IMG/VR virus record: IMGVR_UViG_3300027956_000006
DNA length: 64,000 nt
Direction: 5' to 3' (one strand)
Source: a virus
This document shows positions 17,736 through 63,331 of this stretch, piece after piece (the first letter of the stretch is position 1; each line of letters opens with the position of its first letter). The notes beneath the pieces were generated by a model, which worked only from the letters and a program-made list of their open reading frames with translations, made no database searches and was not told where the DNA came from. The position numbers and the translations under genes are program-made.

Positions 17736-18248
17736 ATGGGAACTCGTGGTGCATGGGGATTCAGAAAAGATAATATTGATAAAATCGCTTATAACCATTA
17801 TGATAGCTATCCAAGTGGACTGGGTGAAACCATTAAACATTTTATTGTTAAGCATAGTATTGAGGAATTAGAAAAAACATTTTACCGAATTATCTTAATT
17901 GATGGTAACACACCACCCAATGAAGAACAAATTAAACAATGTTCAAAATTTTTAGATTTAGGTGTTAGCAACAAAACAAAACAAGATTGGTATTGTTTAT
18001 TACGTGAAGCACAGGGCAATCCCGAAGCTTATGTAAATGATTTAGTATATATGGTGGATAGTGCAGCATTTTTAAAAGATAGTTTATTTTGTGAATGGGC
18101 GTATATAATCAATCTCGATACAAAAAGATTAGAAATATATGAAGGGTGCCAAAAAAGAGCACAAAAAAATAGATACTATAATTGTAAGTTACAGTTTGAA
18201 GTTGATTTAGATAAAGTAAAGACTTTTAAAATAGGAGCTATAAAATGA
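17736..18248 (+). CDS. hypothetical protein immediately upstream of and overlapping rtcB
   Basis: Stop overlaps rtcB start (ATGA); likely co-transcribed with RtcB. Confidence 0.3.
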   Translation: MGTRGAWGFRKDNIDKIAYNHYDSYPSGLGETIKHFIVKHSIEELEKTFYRIILIDGNTPPNEEQIKQCSKFLDLGVSNKTKQDWYCLLREAQGNPEAYVNDLVYMVDSAAFLKDSLFCEWAYIINLDTKRLEIYEGCQKRAQKNRYYNCKLQFEVDLDKVKTFKIGAIK

Positions 18249-19477
18249 TTGAAGTTAAATATAATCCCTTGCATGATAAAATACCAGTAAAATTATGGAC
18301 ACAATATGATAAATTAGAATCTGGTGCTAAAGAGCAGATAGAACATCTCCAACAATTACCTTTCGCATTTCATCATATATCTGTTATGCCAGATGTACAT
18401 CAAGGTTATGGGATGTGTATTGGTGGGGTATTAGCTACTGAAAGAGTAGTTGTGCCAAATGCCGTTGGGGTTGATATTGGATGTGGGATGTGTGCAGTTA
18501 AGACTTCTCTTAAGGCGAATCAATTGGATAAAGAAACTCTTAAAAAGATAATGGATAAGATTAGAGAAGTGATACCATTAGGTATGAATCATCATAAAGA
18601 AAAACAAGATGAGAAGTTAATGCCTGAATCTAATATTCTTTCTGCAATGGGAGCAAATGAAAGTGTAGTTTTTTCTGAGTATAACTCTGCTTTAAAACAA
18701 TTAGGAACGTTAGGTTGCGGTAATCATTTCATTGAAATTCAAAAAGATACTAAAGACTCTGTTTGGATTATGATACATTCAGGAAGTAGAAATTTAGGGT
18801 ATAAAGTTGCTAAATATTACAATGATTTAGCTATTAAATTAAATAAACAATGGTTTAGTTCTGTTCCTAAAGAATGGGAATTAGCATTTCTTCCTATAGA
18901 TAGTCCCGAAGGTCAAAATTATTTAAGTGAAATGCAATATTGTGTTGACTTTGCTTTAGCCAATAGAAAATTAATAATGCAGAGAGTCATAGATATATTT
19001 GCTACGTTTTATGGAGACGGATTTCCTTTGAATTCAGACAACTTTGCTTTTAGAGTAGAACCTATAATTAACATCGCTCATAACTACGCTAGATTGGAAA
19101 ATCATTTCGGAAAAAATGTTATTGTTCATCGTAAAGGTGCTACTTCAGCAAGAAATGGGGAAATAGGTATTATTCCAGGAAGTCAAGGTACAAAATCATA
19201 TATTGTAAGCGGTTTAGGCAACTCTGAAAGTTTTATATCTTGTTCTCACGGAGCTGGAAGAACAATGAGTAGAACAAAGGCACAGACAGAATTAAATCTC
19301 GAAGAAGAAATTAAGTTAATGGACAATCAAGGTATTGTCCATGGAATACGAAACAGAGAAAACTTAGATGAAGCACCTGGGGCATATAAAAATATTACTG
19401 AAGTAATGCATAACCAAGCGGATTTAGTTGAGATATTAATTGAACTTACGCCATTATTGGTTGTTAAAGGAGATTAA
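18245..19477 (+). CDS. rtcB: RNA-splicing ligase RtcB (3'-phosphate/5'-hydroxyl RNA ligase)
   Basis: Strong family signatures: SVMPDVHQGYG, VGVDIGCGM, LGCGNHFIEIQ, WIMIHSGSRNLG, NIAHNY, IIPGSQGTKSYIV, SCSHGAGRTMSRTKA; 410 aa. Confidence 0.95.
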   Translation: MIEVKYNPLHDKIPVKLWTQYDKLESGAKEQIEHLQQLPFAFHHISVMPDVHQGYGMCIGGVLATERVVVPNAVGVDIGCGMCAVKTSLKANQLDKETLKKIMDKIREVIPLGMNHHKEKQDEKLMPESNILSAMGANESVVFSEYNSALKQLGTLGCGNHFIEIQKDTKDSVWIMIHSGSRNLGYKVAKYYNDLAIKLNKQWFSSVPKEWELAFLPIDSPEGQNYLSEMQYCVDFALANRKLIMQRVIDIFATFYGDGFPLNSDNFAFRVEPIINIAHNYARLENHFGKNVIVHRKGATSARNGEIGIIPGSQGTKSYIVSGLGNSESFISCSHGAGRTMSRTKAQTELNLEEEIKLMDNQGIVHGIRNRENLDEAPGAYKNITEVMHNQADLVEILIELTPLLVVKGD

Positions 19478-20658: not shown

Positions 20659-22872
20659 ATGGGCAAAACACAAGAAGATTTAGAAAATAGCCGTAAAAAA
20701 CGTGAGTTTGTTATAGAACAATTCGGAGAAGTACCAACATCAATCTGGCCAGTTGATTATAGTTGGGGTAAAAGTACTCTCGAATTAGATGAGAGAAAAC
20801 AACAAAAAATCGCTGAAGAAAAACATAAAAAAATGAAGTACAACCTTCAGACATTCGAAACCCAAAATGGTGAAGTAGTCGAATTTAACCAAATACAAGA
20901 CGCTTTCTCAATGAGTTCGCAAAATGTTAGAGGTAAAGGAGCTGGTCTTTCAACATTTCCTCCAGACCTTTGTCGCAAAATCACCGTATTTTATAGCAAT
21001 GAGGGTGATACAATACTTGATCCTTGCTGTGGGCATGCAAGCAGATTGGAAACAGTACACAAACTGAATCGCCATTATATCGGCTATGATGTATGCCATG
21101 CGTTCTGTGTATTTAATGAGAAAGTCAAAGAAAAATTGCTTTCAGATCAACTCTTCCCTTCTCAATATACGATAACATTACGTGAACAAAGTTCGGAGAA
21201 AATGGTAGAAAAAGATGCTTCAATCGATTTAGTTTTCACGAGCCCACCCTACCATGACATCGAATTCTACGACGATAATCCAGCTCAACTTGGTTATAAG
21301 AAAACATACGAAGAATTTCTCGCTGGTATTACTCGTGTTTTATCAGAATGTTATCGTGTTTTAAAACCAAACAAATTCTGTGTTTTTAATGTGAACGATT
21401 TTAGAAAAGATAATAAATATTATATATATCATGCAGACATTGCGAGAATCATGGAGCAAGTAGGGTTTAAATTGTGGGACATTGTTATTATACCCTGGAA
21501 GAGTTGCATCGGTCAATGTTTAACATCCAATACAGAAATTTTAACAAATAAAGGGTATAAACAAATACAAGATATCAAAGTAAATGATTTAGTTATCTCC
21601 CATTTAGGTAAACAACGTAAAGTACAGCATATCTTTGCACGTCTAATCAAAGAAAAAGTTTATGAATTATCAATAGCTGGGACTAACGATAAAATCATAC
21701 TCACAAAAGAGCATCCGATTTTAAGTGTAAAAAAATCAGCAATCATGTGCGTGCGTAACAAACATCTCCCTTGTAATGGTCATTTCAACAAATCACCCTG
21801 TGTTGCGATAAAAGGAGTCTATAAAACAGATTGTAATAAAAATAATGATAAATTGATAAAAGACGCCACTAAATGGAATAATGTGTCTTCTTTACTGGTT
21901 GGAGATTATGTTGCAATACAAACAAATTTAGATGTTAAAGACATTGAATCTTTGGATATTTGTGATTTTTTAGAAAAGGAACGATTCTATATTTACAATA
22001 ACAAATATATCCTACCAAAATTATATAAACCTTCTTCTGTCAAGATTAATAGAAATATTGATTTGGATTATGATTTGATGAAGTTGTTTGGGTATTTCTT
22101 GTCTGAAGGACATATTTATGTCTATAAAAAGACTGGATATGCAGAAAGCATAACTTTTACATTTAATAAAAAAGAAAAAAATTACATAAAAGATGTTATT
22201 ACGATTATGCACAATAAATTCAATCTGAAAGGAAATATTTATGAACCTAAACAATATAAAACTGCGTCAATTACATTTTATTCTCGTACAGTGAGCGAAT
22301 TCTTTTTGCGATTATTTGGAAATGGTTTTAATAAAAAAGTAATTCCTGATGCATTTCTTTCTTTGCCTACACAGAAACAGTTGGGTTTATTGTGTGGTTT
22401 ATTCCGAGGAGATGGATGTTTGTTGTATAATCAGAAGAAAGAAATTTCTTCAATGAATTTAGGAATGTCTAATAAAAATATTATCAAAAATACACGTGAA
22501 ATATTACTGAGGTTAGGGTATGTGTTTGCATATGGTTATTATAAACCTAAAATCAGCAAAAATCTAACATATCGTATTAGTATTAGTGCAAAAAAAGCTC
22601 CAGCATTGATTGCCCATATCTTTAATAAAAAAATTATTGGCGGCGGATTATATACGTTATCTACCCCAAAAAGCAACACCTATAATTTTAGACGTATTGT
22701 TAATATACGCCAACTGCCATTTGAAGGAAATGTCTATAATCTTGAAGTTGCAATAGATAACTCCTATATTGCTGAAGGTATTATTTGCCATAATTGTTTT
22801 GCTGGTCAGGTTTGGGATCGTAAAATTACCGCTAAATCCCACGAATACTTAGTAGTTGGGAAAAAAATATAG
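20659..22872 (+). CDS. DNA (amino) methyltransferase interrupted by a large LAGLIDADG intein
   Basis: Extein carries ILDPCCGHASRL (motif I-like) and VFTSPPY (motif IV); insertion from Cys287 (CLTSNTEIL) to ...IICHN/C with LFGYFLSEGHI and LFRGDGC LAGLIDADG blocks. Confidence 0.8.
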   Translation: MGKTQEDLENSRKKREFVIEQFGEVPTSIWPVDYSWGKSTLELDERKQQKIAEEKHKKMKYNLQTFETQNGEVVEFNQIQDAFSMSSQNVRGKGAGLSTFPPDLCRKITVFYSNEGDTILDPCCGHASRLETVHKLNRHYIGYDVCHAFCVFNEKVKEKLLSDQLFPSQYTITLREQSSEKMVEKDASIDLVFTSPPYHDIEFYDDNPAQLGYKKTYEEFLAGITRVLSECYRVLKPNKFCVFNVNDFRKDNKYYIYHADIARIMEQVGFKLWDIVIIPWKSCIGQCLTSNTEILTNKGYKQIQDIKVNDLVISHLGKQRKVQHIFARLIKEKVYELSIAGTNDKIILTKEHPILSVKKSAIMCVRNKHLPCNGHFNKSPCVAIKGVYKTDCNKNNDKLIKDATKWNNVSSLLVGDYVAIQTNLDVKDIESLDICDFLEKERFYIYNNKYILPKLYKPSSVKINRNIDLDYDLMKLFGYFLSEGHIYVYKKTGYAESITFTFNKKEKNYIKDVITIMHNKFNLKGNIYEPKQYKTASITFYSRTVSEFFLRLFGNGFNKKVIPDAFLSLPTQKQLGLLCGLFRGDGCLLYNQKKEISSMNLGMSNKNIIKNTREILLRLGYVFAYGYYKPKISKNLTYRISISAKKAPALIAHIFNKKIIGGGLYTLSTPKSNTYNFRRIVNIRQLPFEGNVYNLEVAIDNSYIAEGIICHNCFAGQVWDRKITAKSHEYLVVGKKI
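21517..22794 (+). mobile_element. intein (LAGLIDADG homing-endonuclease type) within the methyltransferase gene
   Basis: Begins with Cys (CLTSNTEILT, block A), ends HN followed by Cys+1; two LAGLIDADG-like blocks. Confidence 0.7.
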
Positions 22873-35040: not shown

Positions 35041-38000
35041 ATGGATTCTTATGAAAATCAATTTATTTATGTTGATGGTTATTATGAAAAATCTTCCGGT
35101 CATGCTACTCCCTGGAAAAGAATTAAAATCTCTGAAATACCTAATTTAAAGAAAAAAGCAGAAAATTTCAACGTTTTTGTTACAGCACAACAATTCTGTT
35201 CACCACAAAGAGTAGAAGAGGAGTTACTTTGGGGGCCTTTATACTTTGATTTAGATGCTTCCGAACAATATCCTATTGAAATAGCAAAAGAAGATGCGCG
35301 TAAACTGGTTGATTTTTTTGTGAAAGGCCATGGTATCAACCACGAGTATGTACGTAGTTATTATTCCATTATTGGTGACACACCTGTATTAATTAAGCAA
35401 AATAATGGTAAGGTCAGATTAATTAGCATACAACAAGTTGTTGAAGAATTTAAAAGAACAAAAAATCTAAAAGTTTATTCTTTAGATCCTACTACAAAAA
35501 AATCTAAATTTTGTAATATATATGATACATTATCACACAAAGAACATGTTATTAATGTTTATCACGAATGTTCAAATTTACCACTTATTATTACTAATGA
35601 TCATTCTGTATATGTTGTTAATGAGAATTTAGAATTAATAGTTAAAAAGGGTAACGAATTACAACGTAATGATTATTTAGTAACATTTAATTCATTAGAT
35701 TATGATTTTGGCAATAATAATGCAAAACGCCCTAATTATACTATATCTTATAAGAATAAATCAATAAAAATTAATAATGATATTGCTAAATTTATAGGAT
35801 TTTTTGTTAGTGAAGGTCATATCTCTACTGATCAACAGAAATATTGTCGATTTTGTGGTAATGTTGGATTGTCTCGTATTGGAATAGGATTTTCATTTCA
35901 TTGTAAAGAAAAAGAATATATCGAATTTATTATAAAAACAGCAAAACAATATTTTAATTTACAAGCACATTCCCATACCTCTAATAATTGTACACAGATA
36001 TTATTTCATTCGCGTGAATTAGCTATTTTAATGGAGCAACTATGTGGAAAAGGTGCAATTAATAAACATTTTCCTGATGAATTTTTAAGTTATAGAAAAA
36101 ATATTCAAATGGCGCTTTTAGAAGGATATTTAGATGGAGATGGACATTATGATAATTATAGAAATAGATATGGTACTACGATATCAAAAATATTAGCAGA
36201 ACAATTAGTTTGGTTAGGGAAATCATTGGGTTTTTCTTCGACAATCCGTGTTGGTAATTATGACATGACACACAATAGACATTCTCATCTTTCTTATCGT
36301 ATTAGTTTTAAAAAACAAAAATTTACAAAATTTGCACCAGCACCAAGAGATTTATTATTACCAGTTAAACCACTAGGCAATGTTTATAGACAATGTTGTC
36401 CAATATTTCAACAAAAAAATAAACGTGTATTTCGCACATTTTTTCTTCAAAAAAATAGATTAAATAAGCAACAAATATATAAAATTATTCGACTTTTAGA
36501 TCGTTATAAAACAAAAGAATTTGATATATTAAGTAAATCTATTATTACGTCCTATAAACAATTCTTTCAAAATAATCTTTCTGTATTACCAATTACAAAA
36601 ATAATTAAAACAAAAAAGAAAGAAATGGTATATGATTTATCGGTTGATCAAAATGAGAATTTTTTTGGTGGTTCATACCCAATTTTATTACACAATTCTG
36701 GGTCCAAAGGATTCCATGTCTTTGTGCATCCAAATGTCTTAAATGTGCATCCAGACGCAAAATTACATCATATTTTCAAGTCTATAGCACTGTATTTAGA
36801 GCAGCTTTTAGAACTTAAGACGCTAGATACAGCTTCTATTTATTCAAAACGTCGTATGATGCGGCTACCAGACTCTTTACATCAAAAATCTAAGCTTTTT
36901 AAGATAGAATTGCAACATAATGAATTAAATAAGACTATTGAAGAAATACGTGATCTTGCTAAACAGCCAAGAGGTAGCTTATGGCCTGAGGAAGAATTTG
37001 GTAATATCTTACCTGTAGATGATGCGGCCATATTTTATAAGCATTTTGTTGACCTCTATAAGCAGCAAGAAATGATTGAGAAACTTAAGCCTCAAGTTTT
37101 GATACGTAAAACAGGTGAAACTGCTACTTGTGTTAAAGATTTACTTGAAAAGCATATACGTAAAAATGGAACCCGTAATTTAGCTACTATGAATTTAGCT
37201 ACATATTTCAAGGATCAAGGGTTTAATGAAAAAGAGACAATTGATGTTTTACTTCCTTGGGCGTTACGCACACCAAAAGAATTCACTTCTACAAAAGATG
37301 CATCTAAATTGAAAGCATCTACAATTTCATGTATAAAGTCTGTTTTTGGAAGTGATTATCATTTTGTTTGCAGTGTTATGCGTTCTCTTGGAGAAATTGC
37401 ATGTGATTTTGAACATTGTGAAATTGCCAATGAAGAAGATCAAAAACCAGAGAAAGAGATTATATTACATTTATCTGAAGCCTCTAATGCATGTTATATA
37501 AGAAAGAAAATAAAATCCAAAGTGCTAGTGGCAGGTAAAGATACTTCTCCATATTTAGTACCAAGACGTATTAAAATGGTCTGTGTTCCAGATTTAAAGC
37601 AGGAAGATAGTAAATGTAAAGAATGTAAGATGGCAAAACACGGTGGTAATTTTGAATTTGAACTAAATGAACATGATGCTTTATTATTAGAGTGTATCCA
37701 ATGTTCTACAACACAACAAATTAATGTTTTAAGACGTTTAACTGAAACAACTAAATGCAATAAACCAAAGCTTTCGATCCTTGATACAGGCAATGTTGAG
37801 GAATTAGAGATTACTCCAGAAATAGATAAGCAGGTTAATATGGCTGCGGAAGGTAGTGAAGAATATGTTACGCGTAAAGCATATTATATTGGACATAACA
37901 TGCCTTTAAATCAAGAAGTTGAAATATCATGTTATACATATGCTGACCCTAAAACGCAACATGCGGTTCATTTATTTAGTGATTTTTCTTCTGCGGAAAC

Positions 38001-39444
38001 ATCTTTGAATAGTTTTAAAATGGATCCACATAAAGTAAAGGAATTGTCTATTTTCAAACCAAAAAACAATCAAACCATTGATCAGAAAATTCTAGAGATT
38101 CATAAAGATCTTGAGTTAAATGTACATCATATTTGGCAACGTGCACCATTGTTTATTGCTTTTGATCTTGTGTATCACTCAGTTTTAAACTTTTATTTTC
38201 AAGGAGATATTTTACGTAAAGGGTGGTCAGAGTTACTTGTAATTGGTGATTCTGGACAAGCAAAAACGGCTGCGGCACAAAAAATATCCCAGCATTATGG
38301 ATTTGGATATCGTATTTCTGGTGAGGGTGCGCGCAGAACAGGTTTGGCGTATACTTGGCATCAAACTGCTAATCGTTGGTCTGTTTCTTTCGGTGTGATA
38401 CCAAGAAATGATAAGCGTATTGTTTTTATAGATGAGGCCGGTGGTATTGATGATGAAGAATTATCTAAATTGACAGATATGCGTTCTGAAGGTATAGCTG
38501 ATGCAAGAGGTGGCCCGATACCAGCACGTACACATGCTCGTACACGTTTAATTTGGATGACTAATACAAAAACAGGGGCGCCGTTAAATGAATACCCTTA
38601 CCCAGTTACAGCTATACAACAAGTTTTTAGACGTACAGAAGATATAAGAAGGTTCGATTTAGCAATAGCCGTACGTTCTGGTGATGTATCTGATGCTATG
38701 ATACACCAATTAATTTCACAACGTGATAAAGTGGAGCACATATACACATCTTATTTATGCAGAAATCTGATTTTATGGGCATGGACGCGTAAAGTTGATC
38801 AAATTATTATTAAACCAGATGCGGAGCAAGCTATCCTTGAAACTGCAATGCATATGTCTCAGAAATATTCTTCTTTAATACCTCTTGTTGAGCCATCAGA
38901 TCAGCGTAATAAGATAGCACGTTTAAGTGTGGCGATAGCGGCAAGGCTTTTTTCGACTGACGAACAAGGCGAACATATTATTGTTTTATCTGAACATGTA
39001 CATTTTGTACGTGATTTTTTACAAGAACAGTATGATGGTCGTGCATTAGATTATTATAATTATAGTCAATTAAATAAAAGGGAGTTTATAGAGTCTGAAT
39101 TTGAAACGATTAAGAATGAATTTATGCACTTACCAGAGTATAAGTTATTAGCAAGTGCTTTAGTAAAAATGCCTTTTTTCAGAAAAACCATCTTGGAAGA
39201 ATTAGTAGGATATGATAAAGATGATATGCGGAGAACGATTAAGATTTTACATGTGCATAATCTTATGAAAGCTACTTCACATGGATTTAAACTAACTGCA
39301 GCAGGTATTAATTTTTTAAAACGTTTATTAACAACACAAGAACTAGTTAATGCTGGGACTGTGGTAACTATTGAAAATGTACCAATCATAAAAGATACCC
39401 AAGAATATATGAATACGGATGATATTTTTGCTGAAGGTAACTAA
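35041..39444 (+). CDS. bifunctional DNA primase (AEP/prim-pol type) - P-loop helicase, interrupted by an intein
   Basis: N-terminal LYFDLDA (acidic motif I) then intein; C-extein resumes SGSKGFHVFVH (AEP motif II); downstream LLVIGDSGQAKTAAAQ Walker A and VFIDEAGGIDDEE Walker B. Confidence 0.7.
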   Translation: MDSYENQFIYVDGYYEKSSGHATPWKRIKISEIPNLKKKAENFNVFVTAQQFCSPQRVEEELLWGPLYFDLDASEQYPIEIAKEDARKLVDFFVKGHGINHEYVRSYYSIIGDTPVLIKQNNGKVRLISIQQVVEEFKRTKNLKVYSLDPTTKKSKFCNIYDTLSHKEHVINVYHECSNLPLIITNDHSVYVVNENLELIVKKGNELQRNDYLVTFNSLDYDFGNNNAKRPNYTISYKNKSIKINNDIAKFIGFFVSEGHISTDQQKYCRFCGNVGLSRIGIGFSFHCKEKEYIEFIIKTAKQYFNLQAHSHTSNNCTQILFHSRELAILMEQLCGKGAINKHFPDEFLSYRKNIQMALLEGYLDGDGHYDNYRNRYGTTISKILAEQLVWLGKSLGFSSTIRVGNYDMTHNRHSHLSYRISFKKQKFTKFAPAPRDLLLPVKPLGNVYRQCCPIFQQKNKRVFRTFFLQKNRLNKQQIYKIIRLLDRYKTKEFDILSKSIITSYKQFFQNNLSVLPITKIIKTKKKEMVYDLSVDQNENFFGGSYPILLHNSGSKGFHVFVHPNVLNVHPDAKLHHIFKSIALYLEQLLELKTLDTASIYSKRRMMRLPDSLHQKSKLFKIELQHNELNKTIEEIRDLAKQPRGSLWPEEEFGNILPVDDAAIFYKHFVDLYKQQEMIEKLKPQVLIRKTGETATCVKDLLEKHIRKNGTRNLATMNLATYFKDQGFNEKETIDVLLPWALRTPKEFTSTKDASKLKASTISCIKSVFGSDYHFVCSVMRSLGEIACDFEHCEIANEEDQKPEKEIILHLSEASNACYIRKKIKSKVLVAGKDTSPYLVPRRIKMVCVPDLKQEDSKCKECKMAKHGGNFEFELNEHDALLLECIQCSTTQQINVLRRLTETTKCNKPKLSILDTGNVEELEITPEIDKQVNMAAEGSEEYVTRKAYYIGHNMPLNQEVEISCYTYADPKTQHAVHLFSDFSSAETSLNSFKMDPHKVKELSIFKPKNNQTIDQKILEIHKDLELNVHHIWQRAPLFIAFDLVYHSVLNFYFQGDILRKGWSELLVIGDSGQAKTAAAQKISQHYGFGYRISGEGARRTGLAYTWHQTANRWSVSFGVIPRNDKRIVFIDEAGGIDDEELSKLTDMRSEGIADARGGPIPARTHARTRLIWMTNTKTGAPLNEYPYPVTAIQQVFRRTEDIRRFDLAIAVRSGDVSDAMIHQLISQRDKVEHIYTSYLCRNLILWAWTRKVDQIIIKPDAEQAILETAMHMSQKYSSLIPLVEPSDQRNKIARLSVAIAARLFSTDEQGEHIIVLSEHVHFVRDFLQEQYDGRALDYYNYSQLNKREFIESEFETIKNEFMHLPEYKLLASALVKMPFFRKTILEELVGYDKDDMRRTIKILHVHNLMKATSHGFKLTAAGINFLKRLLTTQELVNAGTVVTIENVPIIKDTQEYMNTDDIFAEGN
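35365..36696 (+). mobile_element. intein (Ser1, LAGLIDADG type) inserted at the primase active-site motif
   Basis: Starts SIIGDTPVLI (block A), contains FIGFFVSEGHI and LLEGYLDGDGH LAGLIDADG blocks, ends ...ILLHN followed by Ser+1. Confidence 0.65.
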
Positions 39445-48003: not shown

Positions 48004-49050
48004 ATGGAAAAAATAATGATTAAAGATTTATTAAAGGGATATAATATTAATCATGCCGGAATTCAAAATGTTGGCATTATGACTGTTGTTCCTTTAGTCT
48101 CTAATCAAGAATATACCCCTATTACTTCTTTTATTAATATTCGTCTTGATCAAGATTTAGAATATAACAAATTACAATTTAAAAATGATTCTGATGATAT
48201 TGGTATTTTATTGCAAGGATATACTATTATATCAGATCAAAAGGCCCAAGATCGTACGGTACCTTACCCTAGATTAATTAAAGGTAGAAGTAAAGTAATT
48301 GTACCGGCTAACTGTGTCGAACCACATCAGGGTGGTTCTTTGCAGACATCAAAAATAAACCCAGAAAATTTTAAAATATTACCACCTTCATTACGTGCAC
48401 TTGCTATGCAAAAATCAAGCTTTAGTTCGGGTGAAACTGGTGCATTATGGGAATCATTATCTACATGGTCGAAAGATCTTGATTTACGTAATAATGGATT
48501 GGTTTCTTTTTATGAAAAATTTGTGCAACAATTAGATGAGTTTGTTGCTTCTTTTGAACCAGTAGAAAAGCAATTGGGAGCAATTACAATTTTAAATGAT
48601 GAAGTTATCGCTATTGACATTGCACCAAAATATGCTTCATGGTTACAAATTTTTAGACCATTAATTAGAGATAGCTATGGTGCCGAAGCTTGCCGTTTAA
48701 TTCAAAACAAACAAATTAAAAGTTTAATTGATATTATAGATACTACTAATATAAATAGTGCAGAATCATTAGAGAAAAATTTTACTAGTAATACAGCAAT
48801 ATTTTTTGACCGTATTAAAAATATTATAAAACAGAACATAGAGTTAGAAAGTACTTATAGTATGTTGCAAGAATTAAATGATTTAAATTTAGTTCAATTT
48901 GAATCAAAACAATTTTTAGGTTGTGGTGTATATCATGGCGATCATATAGTGTATTTATCTTTAGTAAGTAAAGAAATTATGAAAAAAAAGGAAAAAATTG
49001 CTGATTTAAACACTGTGCATAATTACGCTAATAATGCGTTTCGTATTTAA
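48004..49050 (+). CDS. hypothetical protein (348 aa) upstream of dnaN
   Basis: Strong RBS AGGAGA; no motif recognised. Confidence 0.3.
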   Translation: MEKIMIKDLLKGYNINHAGIQNVGIMTVVPLVSNQEYTPITSFINIRLDQDLEYNKLQFKNDSDDIGILLQGYTIISDQKAQDRTVPYPRLIKGRSKVIVPANCVEPHQGGSLQTSKINPENFKILPPSLRALAMQKSSFSSGETGALWESLSTWSKDLDLRNNGLVSFYEKFVQQLDEFVASFEPVEKQLGAITILNDEVIAIDIAPKYASWLQIFRPLIRDSYGAEACRLIQNKQIKSLIDIIDTTNINSAESLEKNFTSNTAIFFDRIKNIIKQNIELESTYSMLQELNDLNLVQFESKQFLGCGVYHGDHIVYLSLVSKEIMKKKEKIADLNTVHNYANNAFRI

Positions 49051-49064: not shown

Positions 49065-49820
49065 ATGCAAAATTTAACAAAATATTTTCAAAAAGCAAAA
49101 TTAAATTTGACTGTTACCGATAAACCAATTGCTATGAACAAGTTTATTAGAACTGAGAATAGCGATAAAATATTTCAAATGACTATTGACTCAGGTAAGA
49201 GCGAACGTTTTAGGATATTTCCTGGTGTTGGGACAGATGTGCGCGTTTTAGATTATGATAACCATAAGCGCCAGGTTTTATTGTTTGTTAAAGAACCTAA
49301 GCGTACATTTAGTACAACCCAGTATGATATAAAACAAGGTAAAAACATTACTACTGTACATGAAACACCAGACTATATCAGAAGATATTTGATGGGAATG
49401 GATGAGACACACTTATTTATTGCTGAACTACCTAATAGACAAGGTAAAGTTAATGATATTGTAGATGCACATCGTATCTTGCAACCCTATGAAGTAAAAG
49501 ATAAGAAAAAAAGATTAAAAACTAAGATTAAAAGACAAGGTGAATGGTTTTTTATTAAAGCTACCCCTAAAGAATTAGAAATGATATCTGCAGCAATGAG
49601 TGCACCACTATATAAAGCAAGAACAAGTTTTACTTTACCTACTTTAGGTAAACCTCATATTGCTGAAGAAGCAATAATAGTATCAGAAATGATTTTTATT
49701 AAGGGAAAAATAAAACATGCTGACCATAAAACGCAACATTTTTTTGATTGGCATAGAGTATATAGAAATACTGAAATAGAAAACAGAGATAGAAGTGCTA
49801 TTCAAGGGTGGGTAGATTAA
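49065..49820 (+). CDS. hypothetical protein (251 aa), stop overlaps dnaN start
   Basis: RBS GAGGA; basic patches KDKKKRLKTKIKRQGEWFF. Confidence 0.3.
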   Translation: MQNLTKYFQKAKLNLTVTDKPIAMNKFIRTENSDKIFQMTIDSGKSERFRIFPGVGTDVRVLDYDNHKRQVLLFVKEPKRTFSTTQYDIKQGKNITTVHETPDYIRRYLMGMDETHLFIAELPNRQGKVNDIVDAHRILQPYEVKDKKKRLKTKIKRQGEWFFIKATPKELEMISAAMSAPLYKARTSFTLPTLGKPHIAEEAIIVSEMIFIKGKIKHADHKTQHFFDWHRVYRNTEIENRDRSAIQGWVD

Positions 49821-50911
49821 TGAAATTTAAAACTAAAAAAAGTGAGTTAGTGAAAGCATTACAAATAGTTGAAAATGCTGTTGCGATAAAAGCAACAATG
49901 CCGGTATTAATGCAAGTATTGCTTAATCTAAATGGGAACACACTACAATTAAGTACGACTAATTTGAACCTTAGTATTACAACAAATATTGTAGTTGCGG
50001 TACAAGAAGAAGGGGCATTAACATTACCATTTAAAAGATTTAAAGATGTTGTCAGTGCGTTATCTAATGAAGAGATAGAAATAACAACCGATCAACATAA
50101 TTCAATTATTATTAATAATAATAATTGTAAATTAAAAATTAAATCATTATCTGCAGATGATTTTCCTAAATTACCTGATATTAAAACAGAAAATACATTT
50201 AAAATTAAGTATTCTTTATTATCAGAAATGGTAATGCGTACAGCTTTTGCTGCGTCTTTAGACGAGGCTAGAGCTATATTTACGGGCATTTTACTTGAAG
50301 TAGAGCAAGATAATATTATTTTAGCAGCGACTGATAGTAAAAGAATTGCGGTTAGTAAGAATAAATTATCTACTTCTATTAATACACATTTAAAAGCTAT
50401 TGTTCCAGCAAAAACTTTTAAAGAAATCGTTACCATGTTACAAGGTGAAGGTGATTTATTAATTACTATGGAAGAAAGGATGATTGGAGTTATTTTTGGC
50501 CCTACTAAAATTACTTCCCGTGTAATTAATGGTGAATATCCAGACTACTCTAAAGTTATTCCCTCTTCTAATGAAAATAAACTAACAGTATCACGAAAAA
50601 ACTTATTAGAAGCACTAAAAAGATCGGCATTGTTTATGACAGAAGAGTATCAAAGCACTAAATTTGACTTTACACAAAATAAATTAACTATTTCAAAAAT
50701 AACTCCTGATGTAGGGGAGTTTCAGGAAGAAATAAATATTACTTATGCTGGTGGAGACATTGTTATTGGCTTTTATCCTAATTATTTAATAGATGCATTA
50801 AGTAATTTAACCGAGGAAGTTATTGAATGTGAACTTACCGCGGCAGATCGACCTGCAGTTATAAAAGTAGCTGATTATACGTATATTGTATTACCGATGA
50901 GATTACATTAA
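49808..50911 (+). CDS. dnaN: DNA polymerase III beta subunit (sliding clamp)
   Basis: 367 aa, collinear with DnaN: MKFKTKKSEL...LLEVEQDNIILAATDSKRIA...INGEYPDYSKVIP...IGFYPNYLIDAL...VLPMRLH. Confidence 0.9.
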   Translation: MGRLMKFKTKKSELVKALQIVENAVAIKATMPVLMQVLLNLNGNTLQLSTTNLNLSITTNIVVAVQEEGALTLPFKRFKDVVSALSNEEIEITTDQHNSIIINNNNCKLKIKSLSADDFPKLPDIKTENTFKIKYSLLSEMVMRTAFAASLDEARAIFTGILLEVEQDNIILAATDSKRIAVSKNKLSTSINTHLKAIVPAKTFKEIVTMLQGEGDLLITMEERMIGVIFGPTKITSRVINGEYPDYSKVIPSSNENKLTVSRKNLLEALKRSALFMTEEYQSTKFDFTQNKLTISKITPDVGEFQEEINITYAGGDIVIGFYPNYLIDALSNLTEEVIECELTAADRPAVIKVADYTYIVLPMRLH

Positions 50912-55917: not shown

Positions 55918-55989
55918 CGCAGGGTAGTGTAGGGGGAACACACTTGTCTCATACGCAAGAGAACAGTGGTTCAAATCCACTTCCTGCAA
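55918..55989 (+). tRNA. tRNA-Met (anticodon CAU); C1xA72 mismatch suggests initiator-like or Ile2/lysidine type
   Basis: Hand-folded cloverleaf: D stem GTGT/ACAC, anticodon stem CTTGT/GCAAG loop CTCATAC, T arm AGTGG-TTCAAAT-CCACT. Confidence 0.65.
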
Positions 55990-56049
55990 CAAATTTAATA
56001 GTATAAACAAACATGACTATAAAAGTTAGATTCGAACATAAGATGTATA

Positions 56050-56207
56050 AAAACCAAAGCCGTAAGCTTTGGCCCGCAGCCATTTTATGTTCGGGTAGCT
56101 TTAGGCCAGCGTTTGTTTCTACAGATAATATAACCGATTCACAGTAGAACGTAGCTGACAGATCTAGGACCTAAAGCTACCGACTACTAAAAAGAGTCGG
56201 TTTTTTT
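56050..56207 (+). ncRNA. structured ncRNA of unknown class ending in an intrinsic terminator (candidate Y-like / sRNA)
   Basis: Hairpins CCAAAGC-CGTAA-GCTTTGG and CCCG...CGGG; 14-bp helix GGTAGCTTTAGGCC / GGACCTAAAGCTACC with a bulged A enclosing 59 nt; ends with CCGACT-ACTAAAAAG-AGTCGG + T8. Confidence 0.45.
56179..56207 (+). terminator. Rho-independent terminator
   Basis: CCGACT(ACTAAAAAG)AGTCGG followed by TTTTTTT. Confidence 0.7.
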
Positions 56208-56213
56208 ATTTAT

Positions 56214-56286
56214 GCCGCTGTGGTCTACGGGTTAGGACGCGAGAATTTCACTCTCGCAAAGCGAGTTCGATCTCTCGCCAGCGGTG
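56214..56286 (+). tRNA. tRNA-Glu (UUC)
   Basis: Acceptor GCCGCTG/CAGCGGT, D stem GTCT/GGAC, anticodon stem GCGAGA/TCTCGC loop ATTTCAC, T arm GCGAG-TTCGATC(T)-CTCGC. Confidence 0.65.
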
Positions 56287-56294
56287 CTAGAATT

Positions 56295-56370
56295 GCCTCG
56301 TTAGCATAGTTTGGCTCAATGCGTTGGCTTGTCACGCCAAAGATCGGGGATTCAAATTCCCCACGGGGCG
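56295..56370 (+). tRNA. tRNA-Asp (GUC)
   Basis: Acceptor GCCTCGT/ACGGGGC, D stem GCAT/ATGC, anticodon stem TTGGC/GCCAA loop TTGTCAC, T arm GGGGA-TTCAAAT-TCCCC. Confidence 0.85.
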
Positions 56371-56379
56371 CTAAGAATT

Positions 56380-56636
56380 TAGTTAATGAACTAGCTACGG
56401 GTAAGCCTTAATGACTTATCTGAGGAAAGTCCAGGCTCTACATAGCAGCGTATCAAAGCTAACAACTTTGAGCAATCATAAAATTGACGATAAGAGGACA
56501 GAGACGAGAAAAATGAGACGACCAATCTCTACGCAGAGCAAGATCAAACAGAACCTGACCTGCTCGGTCGATAGGTTCGGGTAACGATCGCATAGACGGA
56601 TGGCTAGATAAACAAAACCTGGCTTATCATTAACTA
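56380..56636 (+). ncRNA. rnpB: RNase P RNA (compact, ~255 nt)
   Basis: P4 strands GAGGAAAGTCCAGGCTC (hallmark GGAAAGUCCGGGCUC) and ACAAAACCTGGCTTATC (ACAGAACCCGGCUUAUC) with compensatory CGG>CAG / CCG>CTG changes; P1 GTTAATGA / TCATTAAC closes the molecule; CATAGCAGCG after P4 matches CAUAGGGCA. Confidence 0.65.
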
Positions 56637-56646
56637 AATACTTTTT

Positions 56647-56732
56647 GGAGGGTATGTGCATGGTTAGATTGGCACGCCAGTTTGCTAAACTGGAAATCGA
56701 AAGAAACGCAGGAGCGTCACCTGCACCCTCCG
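56647..56732 (+). tRNA. tRNA-Ser (GCU), class II with long variable arm; atypical T loop
   Basis: Acceptor GGAGGGT/ACCCTCC perfect, D stem GTGC/GCAC, anticodon stem CCAGT/ACTGG loop TTGCTAA, 14-nt variable arm, T arm GCAGG-AGCGTCA-CCTGC. Confidence 0.55.
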
Positions 56733-56750
56733 CAAAAAAATTAAGAAAAA

Positions 56751-57434
56751 ATGAAAAAATATGTTTTATATAAAACAATCAATAAAATAAATAAGAAATT
56801 TTATATTGGTGCCCATATAACAGAGAATATTAATGATAATTACATAGGATCGGGATTATATTTATGTCAAGATATTAAAAAATACGGTAAAAATAATTTC
56901 AAAAAGATAGTTTTGAATTGTTTTAATTCGAAAGATGAATTATTATGTGCTGAAAAAAAATTATTGGACGCTAGGTACATAAAAAAGAATAAGCATCGAT
57001 TATATAATAGAAATGGTGGCGGGGCAGGATCGTGGATATATAATAATTATTTTTCTCCAAATAGAAAAGAACGATATAAAAGAATTTATATAAAATTCAA
57101 AAAATTGTTGCGCAATAGAGAATGGAGAAAGGAATTTTGTACAAAACTATCAATAGGACAGAAACAAGCTAGAGCTAAAGGCTTGTGTAAAGGATTTTTG
57201 AATAAAAAGCATACTAATAAATTTAAAAGGTTTATCGGTAAAATAAATGCAATTCAAAATAAAGGCAGAAATAATCCTCAATATAACAAAAAATGGATAT
57301 CGAATCTAAGATTTAAGAAATCTGTTCTTATTAAAAAAAACCTGATACAAGATTATTTAGCTCAAGGTTGGATAATTGGTAGAAGATTTAATGCTGGGTG
57401 TTTTGGGAAATTGGAAGAGTTGACGGAAGTATAG
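56751..57434 (+). CDS. GIY-YIG homing endonuclease
   Basis: N-terminal YVLYKTINKINKKFYIGA (GIY...YIG) ; basic C-terminal DNA-binding region; located between tRNA/ncRNA genes. Confidence 0.7.
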   Translation: MKKYVLYKTINKINKKFYIGAHITENINDNYIGSGLYLCQDIKKYGKNNFKKIVLNCFNSKDELLCAEKKLLDARYIKKNKHRLYNRNGGGAGSWIYNNYFSPNRKERYKRIYIKFKKLLRNREWRKEFCTKLSIGQKQARAKGLCKGFLNKKHTNKFKRFIGKINAIQNKGRNNPQYNKKWISNLRFKKSVLIKKNLIQDYLAQGWIIGRRFNAGCFGKLEELTEV

Positions 57435-57599
57435 AGATCCGACTTGTCTTGAAAACAGGTAACCGTTAATTACGGCATGTAGGGGCAGAACCTACCTCTT
57501 CCGCAAGATAGGAGCTTAAGCTAACAGCAAACTGTCGGTCTCCAAAACCGAATTTACTGGGGCGGAACCAGTAGCTCCTGCAATTGGTGAAAAAAGTTA

Positions 57600-57628
57600 C
57601 TGACAAATTAATTAATTATGCTATAATA
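57600..57628 (+). promoter_or_regulatory. sigma70-type promoter (CTGACA-17-TATAAT) driving downstream tRNA cluster
   Basis: aCTGACAaattaattaattatgcTATAATatat. Confidence 0.55.
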
Positions 57629-57637
57629 TATATAATT

Positions 57638-57711
57638 GGCACTATGGCTGAGTGGTCGAAAGCGATTGTCTGCAAAACAATTTATCAAGAGTTCAAATCT
57701 CTTTAGTGCCT
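57638..57711 (+). tRNA. tRNA-Cys (GCA)
   Basis: Acceptor GGCACTA/TAGTGCC, anticodon stem ATTGT/ACAAT loop CTGCAAA, T arm AAGAG-TTCAAAT-CTCTT. Confidence 0.75.
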
Positions 57712-57715
57712 CAAC

Positions 57716-57794
57716 GAGTCCGATGTCGACTGGTCAGACACTTGCCTTTTAAGCAAGCGCATTTTGCAAGCGAGTTCGATTCTCGCCGGGCTCA
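57716..57794 (+). tRNA. tRNA-like with UUU anticodon (Lys?) and anomalous 12-nt variable region
   Basis: Acceptor GAGTCCG/CGGGCTC, D stem TGTC/GACA, anticodon stem CTTGC/GCAAG loop CTTTTAA, T arm GCGAG-TTCGATT-CTCGC; 79 nt. Confidence 0.45.
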
Positions 57795-57801
57795 CTAGTT
57801 C

Positions 57802-57873
57802 GGGCGTATAGCAAAATGATAATGCAGTTGGCTCTTAACCAGCATATTGGAGGTTTGAGTCCTCCTACGCCCA
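57802..57873 (+). tRNA. tRNA-Lys (CUU)
   Basis: Acceptor GGGCGTA/TACGCCC, anticodon stem GTTGG/CCAGC loop CTCTTAA, T arm GGAGG-TTTGAGT-CCTCC. Confidence 0.7.
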
Positions 57874-57992
57874 CATTATTGCTCCGGAAGACAAGGTGCG
57901 AATCCTTATATATAACAGCTTGCGGTGAAGGCGCCAACCAACCCAAAAGCGACATTATATTAGTGTAATTTTAGCACACCGGGGTTTTAAAT

Positions 57993-58063
57993 TACAGTGT
58001 CCTCTAACGATAGGAGAATGGGCTTTGAACCCGTCAATGAAGGTTTGATTCCTTCCGCTGTAG
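57993..58063 (+). tRNA. tRNA-Gln (UUG)
   Basis: Acceptor TACAGTG/CGCTGTA, anticodon stem ATGGG/CCCGT loop CTTTGAA, T arm GAAGG-TTTGATT-CCTTC; weak 3-bp D stem. Confidence 0.5.
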
Positions 58064-58491
58064 CTAAAATGGAGATGATATGACTGTTGAAGAAAAGAAA
58101 TTAATTGATGATATGACACAATACGAATTATGTCATAGATGGAGATTTGCTAAAATTGGAGATCCTTTATTCCAAGGAGATACTGGTGAATATTATAGTA
58201 AAATTTTAAAAGAAAAAGGTGGTTTTACACCAGAAATTTCAAAACAATTAGGGTGGTTTTAAATGAAAGTCAAAAATTATTTAGGATGGTTGCAAGATAT
58301 GGAGCATTATCGTGAGGGGTATACTTGGCATTATTATATAAATAAAGAAAAAAGTATTTGTGGAAAAAGCAAACATCCTACACAACAATGGAATGCTGCA
58401 TATATGAGAGGTAGAACCTGTAAAAAATGCTTAAACTATTGTAAAAAAAATAAATTAGAAGTTATATAATATCTTATAGAGTATATTAAAT

Positions 58492-58562
58492 TGCGAAGTC
58501 GACTAATGGTAGGCCGCAACGCTCTGAACGTTGAAATCAAGTTTCGATTACTTGCTTCGCAG
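58492..58562 (+). tRNA. tRNA-Gln (CUG)
   Basis: Acceptor TGCGAAG/CTTCGCA, anticodon stem CAACG/CGTTG loop CTCTGAA, T arm CAAGT-TTCGATT-ACTTG; imperfect D stem. Confidence 0.5.
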
Positions 58563-58576
58563 CTAGAAAGGTAATA

Positions 58577-59905
58577 ATGAAAAATAAAATATTTGAGTTG
58601 TTTAAAGATTTTGAGATATTTCTTGTTGGCGGTTCAGTAAGAGATAAACTCTTGAATATAGAAACTAACGATTTAGATTTCGCTACTAGCGCAACCCCAG
58701 ATCAATCTAAAGCAATACTCGAAGCTGCTGGGTATCATCCGCATACTGTTGGATGGGCATTTGGCACAGTTGGTATTGTAAATGATCAATATGAGGTACA
58801 TATTACGACATATCGTAAGGCTGAAGATTATCAGCGCGATAATCGAAACCCGACAGTTGAATGGGGAAAAACTATTCAAGAAGATCTTATAAGACGTGAT
58901 TTTACCATTAATGCACTAGCACAAAATAGCACCGGCGAGATCATAGATTTATTTAATGGAGTACAACATCTTAAAGATAAGTTACTTGTTACACCGATCG
59001 ATGCGAATATAGCGTTTAATGATGATCCTTTAAGGATGTTACGAGCTGTAAGATTTAAGGCAAGACTTGGTTTTGAATATAGCACAAATGTACAAGAAGC
59101 TTTATATAGACAAGCACATCGTTTATTAATTCTTCCAAAAGAAAGGATCCAAGAAGAATTAAATAAGATTTTAATGACAGATAATGCGGCAGATGCATTA
59201 CATGATTTATATCAATTTAGATTACTAGATTATATAATTCCTGAATTAAAGATGTTAAGTAAGATCGAGCAAGACAGTATTTACCATTCAAAAAATGCAT
59301 TATTACATACCATAGAGGTATTGCGTAATACTTCAAAAGATATAATCTTAAGATATGCCGCAATCTTTCACGACTTGGGTAAAATGGTAACCCGGTCTGT
59401 AGAAAATGGTAATGTCCATTTTTATCATCACGAGAATATTTCGGCGCTTATGACATATCCAATTCTACAAAGATTAGGTTTACCAAAACGCTGGTGTAAA
59501 GATATTACATATCTAGTGAGAAATCATATGCGTGCTAATACCTATGAAAAAGACTGGTCAGATAGTGCAGTAAGACGTTTTATACGTGATACTGGTGAAT
59601 ATTGCGATAGACTTTTAGTACTTAGTAGAGCTGATATCACTAGTCATAACCCAATTACTGTGCAGAAGCATCTCGATTCTTTAAATGATTTTGAAAGACG
59701 TATTAATGAATTAAGAAATTTTAAAGAATTAAAATGCCCAATAAGTGGTTTAGTTATTATGGAATTCTTTGATTTACCAGCCTGCAAGAAAGTTGGTGAA
59801 ATAAAAGAGTTGATTCTGAATGCTATCATTAATGGTGAATTAAAAATTGAAGACAGTGAAGAAGTAATATTAGAATATGCGAAACGCAAGATGGAGATAA
59901 AATAA
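58577..59905 (+). CDS. cca: tRNA nucleotidyltransferase (CCA-adding enzyme), class II with HD domain
   Basis: FLVGGSVRDKLLN...NDLDFAT head-domain motif, RDFTINAL, ERI..EL, and HD motif AAIFHDLGK. Confidence 0.85.
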   Translation: MKNKIFELFKDFEIFLVGGSVRDKLLNIETNDLDFATSATPDQSKAILEAAGYHPHTVGWAFGTVGIVNDQYEVHITTYRKAEDYQRDNRNPTVEWGKTIQEDLIRRDFTINALAQNSTGEIIDLFNGVQHLKDKLLVTPIDANIAFNDDPLRMLRAVRFKARLGFEYSTNVQEALYRQAHRLLILPKERIQEELNKILMTDNAADALHDLYQFRLLDYIIPELKMLSKIEQDSIYHSKNALLHTIEVLRNTSKDIILRYAAIFHDLGKMVTRSVENGNVHFYHHENISALMTYPILQRLGLPKRWCKDITYLVRNHMRANTYEKDWSDSAVRRFIRDTGEYCDRLLVLSRADITSHNPITVQKHLDSLNDFERRINELRNFKELKCPISGLVIMEFFDLPACKKVGEIKELILNAIINGELKIEDSEEVILEYAKRKMEIK

Positions 59906-60222
59906 TGTTAGAAATTAATAAAAAATTAGGAAGAGAATAGAGCATACATATGCAATATTTATTAACAGAAGAAGAATATTTAAAATTGGAAAGAAACCCA
60001 GATAAAGATAAGACTGAATCTCTTTTAAATGATTTACGTACTAAAGTTTTAACATTAGCTAATTTTAAATGTCTGCATCAAATTACAGACGTAGATTATG
60101 AAAAAGGATTAAATGTTGATGAGGGTTATTGTGATAATTGTCCATTAAGTTTTTGTAAAAATGAAAACCTTAAAATGAAACATTATCTATGTGGTTGTGA
60201 TACTTTATATTCTAAATAAACA

Positions 60223-60298
60223 CAGTGCGTGGGCCAACTTGGATTAGGTCGCCTGGCCTGGAACCAGGAGGTTGAAGGTTCAAATCCTTCCGTGCTGA
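60223..60298 (+). tRNA. tRNA-Pro (UGG)
   Basis: Acceptor CAGTGCG/CGTGCTG (two GU), D stem GGCC/GGTC, anticodon stem CCTGG/CCAGG loop CCTGGAA, T arm GAAGG-TTCAAAT-CCTTC. Confidence 0.65.
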
Positions 60299-60303
60299 CT
60301 TTC

Positions 60304-60347
60304 GGAGTAGTTAAGTACATTAAAAGAGTTCGCGACTCTCTACTCCA
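60304..60347 (+). ncRNA. tRNA-like minihelix / truncated tRNA (acceptor stem + T arm only)
   Basis: GGAGTAG...CTACTCC 7-bp acceptor-like stem enclosing AGAG-TTCGCGA-CTCT T-arm-like hairpin; no anticodon arm; 44 nt, immediately upstream of HNH gene. Confidence 0.4.
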
Positions 60348-60366
60348 CTAAAATATTTGAAAGGAG

Positions 60367-60882
60367 TTGATTAAGTTGAGAGTTTTAGTTTTAAATAGTT
60401 CGTATGAATTTCTTGGTTTTTGTGATTGGCAATCTGCCATTTGTGCTAAAGTATCCGGTAAGGTTTATGTTGAGGAAGAATATGAGCAGGAAGTAAGATC
60501 ACCTTCAACAACTATGCGTATTCCTGCCGTTATTAGATTACGTCATTATGTAAAAGTTACATATGAAAAAGTGATGTATGTTTCATATACTAAACGTAAT
60601 GTGCATCTAAGAGATAACTATACTTGTCAATATTGTCATACAAAACATGATGCTAGAAAATTAGGTATTGATCATGTATTACCTGAATCACGAGGGGGTT
60701 TAACAACTTGGGAAAATACCGTATCTTGTTGTCATGGATGTAATTTAGTGAAAGATAATAGAACACCTGAAGAAGCAAAAATGAAACTTATGCGTATTCC
60801 AACTAAACCTAGAGGGTTCAGAGAAATCATTAGGATTAAAATTGGTGAGTTACATGATCTTTGGGAAAAGTATTTATTTTAG
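60367..60882 (+). CDS. HNH homing endonuclease
   Basis: CQYCHTKHDARKLGIDHVLPESRGGLTTWENTVSCCHGCNLVKDN (HNH with Zn-binding Cys pairs); sits between tRNA genes. Confidence 0.75.
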   Translation: MIKLRVLVLNSSYEFLGFCDWQSAICAKVSGKVYVEEEYEQEVRSPSTTMRIPAVIRLRHYVKVTYEKVMYVSYTKRNVHLRDNYTCQYCHTKHDARKLGIDHVLPESRGGLTTWENTVSCCHGCNLVKDNRTPEEAKMKLMRIPTKPRGFREIIRIKIGELHDLWEKYLF

Positions 60883-60887
60883 AAATT

Positions 60888-60961
60888 GGTGGGTATCGTC
60901 TAGCGGTTAAGGATACAAGGTCGTGACCCTTGTGACACGAGTTCGAGTCTCGTTACTCACC
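60888..60961 (+). tRNA. tRNA-His (GUG) with G-1:C73
   Basis: Extra 5' G pairing with discriminator C, acceptor GTGGGTA/TACTCAC, anticodon stem CAAGG/CCTTG loop TCGTGAC, T arm ACGAG-TTCGAGT-CTCGT. Confidence 0.8.
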
Positions 60962-60970
60962 CTAAGATAT

Positions 60971-61053: not shown

Positions 61054-61066
61054 CTAATTTGAAAGG

Positions 61067-61934: not shown

Positions 61935-61951
61935 CTGTTCTTTTTAATATT

Positions 61952-63325: not shown

Positions 63326-63331
63326 CTAATT

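Follow-up and report, generated by a model that had tools for sequence, protein, structure and literature searches.

The window, by which we mean the whole 64,000-nucleotide (nt) stretch of virus record IMGVR_UViG_3300027956_000006 analysed here, contains two genes that are each interrupted by a long in-frame insert. One encodes a primase-helicase with an archaeo-eukaryotic primase (AEP) domain, the other a DNA methyltransferase (MTase). We conclude, with a probability of about 0.9, that both inserts are canonical class-1 inteins, and that each carries a two-motif LAGLIDADG homing endonuclease. An earlier inspection of the letters without database searches, hereafter the sequence-only reading, had proposed inteins in an AEP primase and in a DNA methyltransferase. 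Translation and searches of Pfam and NCBIfam recover both elements exactly to the base and in frame (Table 1), with the nucleophiles and lengths first given for them (Ser1...HN/Ser+1 and 444 amino acids (aa); Cys1...HN/Cys+1 and 426 aa; a slash marks a splice junction).

Results

Two inserts with complete intein signatures

In translation the primase insert begins with SIIGDTPVLI, ends with YPILLHN and is followed by SGSKGFHVFVH, whereas the MTase insert runs from CLTSNTEILT to GIICHN, followed by CFAGQ. The intein blocks are all there, with Ser1, TNDH in block B, VYDLSV in block F and LLHN/S in the former, and Cys1, TKEH, VYNLEV and ICHN/C in the latter; neither insert lacks a residue that the standard splicing pathway requires. 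With cut-offs of 35.8 bits for Pfam Intein_splicing, 22.5 bits for LAGLIDADG_3 (PF14528) and 15.6 bits for the NCBIfam model TIGR01443 intein_Cterm, the primase intein scored 51.2 (E 1.6e-13), 33.3 and 20.9 bits, respectively, and the MTase intein 43.4 (E 4.1e-11), 43.2 and 22.1 bits. These matches are far beyond chance. The LAGLIDADG blocks that the sequence-only reading had seen in both inteins are thus borne out by PF14528, and there are two motifs in each: FFVSEGH and YLDGDGH in the primase intein, with the metal-ligand Glu and Asp intact, and YFLSEGH and LFRGDGC in the MTase intein, where the acidic Glu and Asp are likewise intact. Both inteins are poorer in guanine and cytosine (GC) than their exteins (25.2% vs 34.1% for the primase, 28.9% vs 36.1% for the MTase), which we counted in favor of a foreign or separate history.

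With ten same-site relatives as input, AlphaFold modelled the primase intein at a mean confidence (pLDDT) of 85.9. Foldseek matched this model to PI-PkoII (E=4e-24, template modelling (TM) score 0.72) and to the TliVMA intein (TM 0.73/0.75), and PI-PfuI and PI-SceI were found as well; full-length, endonuclease-bearing inteins gave E values from 4e-24 to 1e-9, and mini-inteins were superposed at a root-mean-square deviation of 2.1 Å. Confidence is high in the endonuclease lobe of the model, which matches I-DmoI (TMt ~0.65-0.70). For the MTase intein the HINT fold was assigned from sequence. Among solved structures, PI-PkoII is the closest to both inteins by sequence and also the best fold match of the primase intein model (TM 0.72-0.75). 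The solved inteins PI-PkoII (2cw7), TliVMA/PhoVMA (7qss, 7qst), PI-PfuI (1dq3) and PI-SceI have, like those of the window, a HINT domain that a two-motif LAGLIDADG endonuclease interrupts, together with an additional helical region, and they share the residues of blocks A, B, F and G. They differ in their hosts (DNA polymerase B, V-ATPase, RNR), and they are only 12-16% identical over structural alignments to the window primase intein, which uses the Ser1/Ser+1 pair.

Homologs without the inserts

With the insert removed, the 1023-aa primase product has 101 homologs, most of them of ~1020-1050 aa and none more than 75% identical to it; many carry PF01896 and PF00493, and PF01896 is recorded in about half. 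In an alignment of 29 sequences the spliced protein is gap-free over junction 108/109 relative to 28 intein-less homologs (...[YF][YF]/SGxKGxH). Residues D70, D72, S109 (the Ser+1), G110, K112, G113, H115 and D152 are invariant in all 29, and the order expected of an AEP enzyme is present: motif I DxD, motif II SGxxGxH and the Asp of motif III. Moreover, a syntenic relative at 75% protein identity (L004) has an empty primase site, which matches the spliced sequence of the window at 60 of 90 nt.

The spliced MTase has 162 homologs of ~300-320 aa, all of intein-less length, with 100% coverage in most of the 120 that were listed. Eight of the 162 were aligned and are colinear across the junction, for example WKSCIGQ/CFAGQVW with WKSCIGACFADQVW. 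PF01555 scores 80.8 bits on the spliced and 73.1 bits on the unspliced protein (cut-off 26.7). Motif I precedes TSPPY, and the intein is located between the conserved WK and HEYLVV segments. We take the SPPY form of this enzyme to suggest N4-cytosine specificity.

The alignments called for by the sequence-only reading therefore gave precise junctions for both genes, and the homologs show both inserts to be excisable, where that reading had named native domains as the alternative. A native or bacterial intein-like (BIL) domain was ruled out, given homologs that lack the segments at the exact residues and the complete set of splicing residues. An assembly chimera was ruled out too, since identical precursors were found on nine contigs each from several samples (the longest with the MTase precursor being 175 kb).

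Table 1. Positions of the two intein-containing genes, their parts and other features of the window
Feature	Position	Strand	Remarks
Primase-helicase precursor gene including intein	35041..39444	+	1467 aa; 1023 aa spliced
Primase N-extein	35041..35364	+	aa 1-108
AEP motif I	35239-35259		LYFDLDA
Primase intein	35365..36696	+	aa 109-552; 444 aa; class 1; Ser1 ... His-Asn; in frame
Primase intein block A	35365-35394
Primase intein block B	within 35584-35616		TNDH
Primase intein LAGLIDADG motif 1	35782..35820	+	IAKFIGFFVSEGH; acidic Glu present
Primase intein LAGLIDADG motif 2	36112..36147	+	ALLEGYLDGDGH; acidic Asp present
Primase intein blocks F/G	36628-36696
Primase C-extein	36697..39444	+	begins with Ser+1; includes PriL-CTD-like Cys cluster
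AEP motif II	36697-36729		SGSKGFHVFVH; first residue is Ser+1
AEP motif III region	36820-36882
MCM Walker A	38245-38268
MCM Walker B	38419-38442
MTase precursor gene	20659..22872	+	737 aa; 311 aa spliced; N6_N4_Mtase family
S-adenosylmethionine (AdoMet) motif of MTase	21013-21042		ILDPCCGHAS
Catalytic motif of MTase	21235-21252		TSPPY
MTase intein	21517..22794	+	aa 287-712; 426 aa; class 1; Cys1 ... His-Asn; Cys+1 at 22795
MTase intein block B	within 21694-21726		TKEH
Cys-rich insert of MTase intein	21748-21834		aa 78-106; N-terminal splicing lobe; CVRNKHLPCNGHFNKSPCVAIKGVYKTDC
MTase intein LAGLIDADG motifs	22075-22113, 22384-22419
RtcB gene	18245-19477
ARPP-1 open reading frame	48004-49050	+	79 bits; just upstream of beta-clamp gene
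beta-clamp gene	49808-50911
tRNA array	55918-63719	+	22 tRNAs by ARAGORN; dense
Bacterial class-A RNase P RNA match	56379-56641	+	between tRNA-Asp and tRNA-Ser in the array; 112.2 bits, gathering score 100
CCA-adding/poly(A)-polymerase-HD enzyme gene	58577-59905		within the tRNA array
Additional tRNA	62621-62692		Rfam only, not ARAGORN
tmRNA, full-length	62851-63245		inside the tRNA array; 137.5 bits; tag peptide ADENTRLLAEANAIVAHVFADAPVVATI

The primase-helicase host

The unspliced primase precursor is seen by Pfam as MCM alone, with no primase match. PF01896 (DNA_primase_S) appears only after in-silico splicing and then below threshold (18.4 vs 26.8 bits). Since a single-sequence search of Protein Data Bank (PDB) sequences with the spliced AEP domain returned nothing but noise (leucine-rich repeat proteins), its identification required a 17-sequence profile and a structure model. 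The profile matched S. solfataricus PriS (1zt2, E=1.2e-5) and aligned the DxD motif (DIDAD in 1zt2), FSGxKGFH and the motif III region. Modelled with AlphaFold, the first 350 aa of the spliced protein reached a pLDDT of 89.7, and the top 50 Foldseek matches of this model were all enzymes of the AEP superfamily; the best PDB folds were PriS, RepB', LigD PolDom, Prim-PolC, human Pri1 and PrimPol. Both Pfam and profile searches assign the C-terminal half to MCM, as an AAA+ module. The hosts had accordingly been named correctly by the sequence-only reading, as had the two motifs, LYFDLDA and SGSKGFHVFVH, that flank the primase intein.

Downstream of the AEP motifs the family profile matches the eukaryotic PriL Fe-S C-terminal domain (CTD) with E ~1e-3, over spliced aa ~185-350 (36697-37800 of the window), and this region has four invariant Cys, C253, C333, C344 and C349 in spliced numbering. 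Because a PriL Fe-S-like region follows the AEP domain, the host is a predicted PriS-PriL-CTD-MCM triple fusion of the BcMCM type. BcMCM itself, from the Bacillus cereus prophage phBC6A51 (PMC2715239, PMC3273815), agrees with it in the order of AEP and MCM domains and in the invariant motifs. Among GenBank phages the top match was the "MCM domain family protein" of phBC6A51 (32.6% identity, 95% of the length), and no GenBank phage relative of the primase exceeded 33% protein identity. Primer synthesis is described for BcMCM (PMC3273815), which is 32% identical to the window protein. BcMCM and 98 of the 101 homologs are intein-less, unlike the window protein. We also noted a 1585-aa metagenomic protein (P0096) that combines an intein-bearing family-B DNA polymerase with a C-terminal AEP/PriL-like domain homologous to that of the window.

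In the spliced model, residues 104-108 and 113-118 form adjacent strands that carry motif II, and the junction falls at the short turn between them. The sequence-only reading described the intein as splitting the catalytic motif. It is right that the element sits at a catalytic motif of the AEP fold, but it abuts motif II, between motifs I and II, instead of cutting through it. As judged from the model, a precursor with 444 extra residues at the motif II turn should not be able to prime before it is spliced.

Distribution of related inteins and insertion sites

With the primase intein as query, HMMER was run in full against 1.84 billion cluster representatives and produced 1828 matches. Nine of its ten best relatives occupy the same site, F/SGxKGxH of AEP primases, and so do at least 17 of the best 150 matches, to which five N-terminal fragments can be added. 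The named hosts of these same-site inteins are Diapherotrites, Bathyarchaeota and one unclassified archaeon, and two others reside on viral-looking contigs. Members of this motif-II family (P0222-P0229, P0233 and others) share the insertion point and the +1 Ser with the window intein, nearly all have Ser1, and the likeness extends over the endonuclease and the C-terminal helical region, that is, over the whole 444 aa. Their hosts differ: they are stand-alone PriS-type primases, among them metagenomic ones of DPANN and Bathyarchaeota, or short viral primases, several of them archaeal, and none is a PriS-PriL-MCM fusion. End-to-end identity between the inteins is 33-40% over ~440 aa, whereas the exteins can barely be aligned (E 1e-4 to 1e-9, short stretches). 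Since the intein is much better conserved than the exteins, this pattern points to horizontal movement in the past, towards a target that is conserved.

The Ser1 intein family is also present in SufS, AAA+ sensor-1, TGHGG-type ATPases and Toprim sites. A close relative (P0230 and its cluster members, E 3e-32) interrupts the cysteine desulfurase SufS at F/SAHK, on the pyridoxal phosphate (PLP)-lysine motif. The likeness of F-S-x-x-K in SufS to F-S-G-x-K in the primase hints at a route by which the endonuclease might have jumped between unrelated genes.

None of the 101 homologs of the window primase-helicase has the motif-II intein. In three BcMCM-type homologs (P0005, P0015 and P0017, with 72%, 44% and 37% identity) the primase is intein-free, and it is the MCM ATPase that holds a LAGLIDADG intein. 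Their insertion points are GD/C...N/SGQAKS, GQAK/C...N/S and KWFV/C...HN/C, two of them at the Walker A P-loop and that of P0017 further downstream. As three relatives hold inteins at three other points, the family has been invaded independently at no fewer than four sites. Inteins in the MCM ATPase are typical of archaeal MCM, where the Walker A P-loop is likewise a site, and a 2016 survey drew the archaeal primase as an intein-free component of the replisome.

A divergent MTase (P0393) carries a same-site intein that is 43% identical to that of the window, its extein being 55% identical. Other close relatives of the MTase intein are found in NifU/IscU, RNR and BadF-type proteins of candidate-phyla organisms. 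Both P0393 and P0396 have Cys-rich segments similar to, and in the same place as, the one in the window MTase intein, which may be a small zinc-binding insert. Inteins in PF01555 methylases, as well as in DnaG/TOPRIM primases, have been reported from actinophages. The actinophage N6_N4 methylase inteins (DNMT-1/2, Kelley et al. 2016, PMC5050341; Gosselin et al. 2023, PMC9957025; a 2025 actinophage survey preprint) share with the window element a PF01555 host, a LAGLIDADG endonuclease, a patchy presence among homologs and a position in a conserved region. The window MTase belongs to another phage group and another MTase subfamily, the latter judged from the metagenomic origin of its 162 homologs, and the likeness noted here is one of family and intein type.

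The statement in the sequence-only reading that both are uncommon insertion sites consequently holds in part. PF01555 inteins are documented, and the AEP site recurs among the best matches; still, no paper on an AEP-primase intein was found within the open-access literature searched, and the motif-II family looks unpublished.

The two inteins of the window are 33% identical to each other over 132 aa of the endonuclease core. With this divergence and their different relatives, a recent copying of one from the other was ruled out. No third intein or free-standing LAGLIDADG gene was detected in the window by six-frame phmmer with nine intein-containing queries.

Genomic context

The window is AT-rich (30.4% GC), and all of its open reading frames (ORFs) of at least 150 aa lie on the plus strand. 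Its genes are phage-like and include an integrase, a RuvB-like ATPase, a SNF2 helicase, a beta-clamp, RtcB and a CCA-adding-type enzyme. Contigs from metagenomes, up to 175 kb long, likewise encode the primase-helicase and MTase proteins. The window looks like part of a large AT-rich phage, apparently of a bacterium. Upstream of the beta-clamp gene lies an ORF that matches ARPP-1, named in Pfam as the ARG and Rhodanese-Phosphatase-superfamily-associated protein. The tRNA array, the transfer-messenger RNA (tmRNA), the CCA-adding enzyme and RtcB constitute a sizeable RNA-repair and translation toolkit.

The array also includes a match to bacterial class-A RNase P RNA, in which model positions 1-367 are spanned from end to end by just 263 nt. 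The P4 core is retained (GAGGAAAGUCC ... ACAAAACCUGGCUUA), 11 nt stand in place of 79 model positions, and a further 24 positions are absent, in an alignment that carries no helix labels. A minimised RNase P RNA encoded by a phage looks unusual; a full-text literature search found no paper tying RNase P RNA to huge phages.

Discussion

We propose that the two precursors would mature by the standard class-1 pathway. After translation, an N-O (or N-S) acyl shift at intein residue 1 would be followed by trans-esterification of the N-extein onto the +1 Ser or Cys, by cyclisation of the Asn to free the intein, and by an O-N (or S-N) shift that restores a normal peptide bond. In the primase, ...VRSYY would thereby be joined to SGSKGFH to give a 1023-aa PriS-PriL-MCM primase-helicase of the BcMCM type, and in the MTase ...WKSCIGQ to CFAGQVW to give a 311-aa SPPY-type methyltransferase. 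Judged by their motifs, both inteins are very probably competent for splicing. At the DNA level they would persist as selfish homing elements: the endonuclease of the freed intein would cut intein-less alleles at the sequence that codes for the conserved motif, and repair would copy the intein in. The primase intein would then be one of an allelic family aimed at the motif-II site, moved among very divergent AEP primases (archaeal PriS, viral, and that of the present phage). Indirect support for homing comes from the occupation of one and the same site in such divergent primases by inteins that are much better conserved than their exteins.

The sequence-only reading had called both elements probably still mobile. 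Mobility is plausible, since the catalytic Glu and Asp of both LAGLIDADG motifs are intact in both inteins, and the chance that the endonucleases are active at present seems to us slightly better than even. Compatible with live homing are the intact acidic residues, the confidently modelled endonuclease fold, the GC difference from the exteins and the patchy presence among relatives.

Several observations weigh against this account of the two elements and call for some caution. Splicing and endonuclease activity are both deduced from motifs alone. Block F of the primase intein has no His (NENFF), and its endonuclease contains an insertion, CRFCGNVGLSR, that is absent from relatives and of low confidence in the model. 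At the MTase site the +1 residue varies among homologs (Cys, Ala, Ser, Ile), so the site is not a catalytic position under strict conservation. Known relatives come no closer than ~37-40% identity to the primase intein and 43% to the MTase intein, which leaves no trace of recent transfer. Finally, an intein-less copy of the same phage was not found, all nine contigs per gene having the identical intein-containing allele, and the alleles consequently look fixed. Homing endonucleases usually begin to decay once their allele is fixed.

The last of these points lead to the most serious alternative, which we rate at somewhat less than an even chance: the inteins splice, and their endonucleases are inactive or lack a target, so that both are fixed, immobile passengers. 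The same occupied allele on every contig recovered, the failure to recover an empty allele of this phage, and identities of just 37-43% to the nearest inteins all fit such passengers, as does the unique and poorly modelled insertion in the endonuclease of the primase intein. Decay does occur in the motif-II family, because the same-site relative P0233 has visibly decayed LAGLIDADG motifs, but in the window inteins the metal-binding Glu and Asp are kept in both motifs of both elements, and the lobe of the primase intein that matches I-DmoI is confidently modelled. A target is likewise on offer, in the form of the empty site of the related phage at 75% protein identity.

We consider it improbable that the inteins have been co-opted as switches, with splicing made conditional on redox state, temperature or metal so as to time priming and DNA methylation during infection. 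Such regulation has been argued in the literature for replication inteins of phages and bacteria, and an intein right at the active site should keep the precursor inactive; in the MTase intein the Cys1/Cys+1 pair and the Cys-rich insert could in principle sense redox. Nevertheless, the target preference of homing endonucleases fully explains insertion at conserved motifs, most close homologs function without any intein, and we saw no sequence feature specific to regulation. That the inserts are not excised at all, being native or degenerate Hint-like domains or dead inteins that inactivate both genes, is very improbable: sequence alone gives no direct evidence of splicing, but the splicing residues are all intact, the exteins keep the invariant catalytic residues of their families, the ORFs run without interruption and do not differ between samples, the primase-helicase is the sole such gene seen in the window and stands beside other replication genes, and in homologs the segments are missing at precisely these positions.

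Taken as two class-1 inteins with homing endonucleases, the elements are ordinary in kind and belong to a known type of selfish element. They fit, and do not change, the known rule that inteins cluster at the active-site motifs of replication proteins. The novelty is modest and consists of the first instance of an AEP motif-II intein in a phage primase-MCM fusion, at a site that apparently hosts a sizeable, undescribed intein family. For annotation, the consequence is that both genes seem ~1.3 kb too long, the true products being a 1023-aa primase-helicase and a 311-aa methyltransferase, and that Pfam misses the AEP domain as long as the intein is left in the sequence. Having a defined target, TTY/TCN GGN NNN AAR GGN TTY CAY, this Ser1/Ser+1 intein is also a minor potential tool for splicing or endonuclease work.

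In conclusion, metagenomic data show that the archaeal primase, drawn as intein-free in the 2016 survey, does harbor an intein that recurs at one specific site, and this intein has reached a phage primase-MCM fusion. That a single undescribed motif-II allele circulates across domains is a tentative suggestion that we regard as possible but doubtful; its carriers would be PriS genes of archaea (DPANN, Bathyarchaeota), unclassified viruses, and a large phage whose tmRNA, RNase P RNA and beta-clamp are of the bacterial type. If it is true, large phages of sediment and groundwater communities would be vehicles for inteins between archaeal and bacterial gene pools, and AEP primases would be a recurrent intein sink alongside MCM, DnaB and the replicative polymerases.

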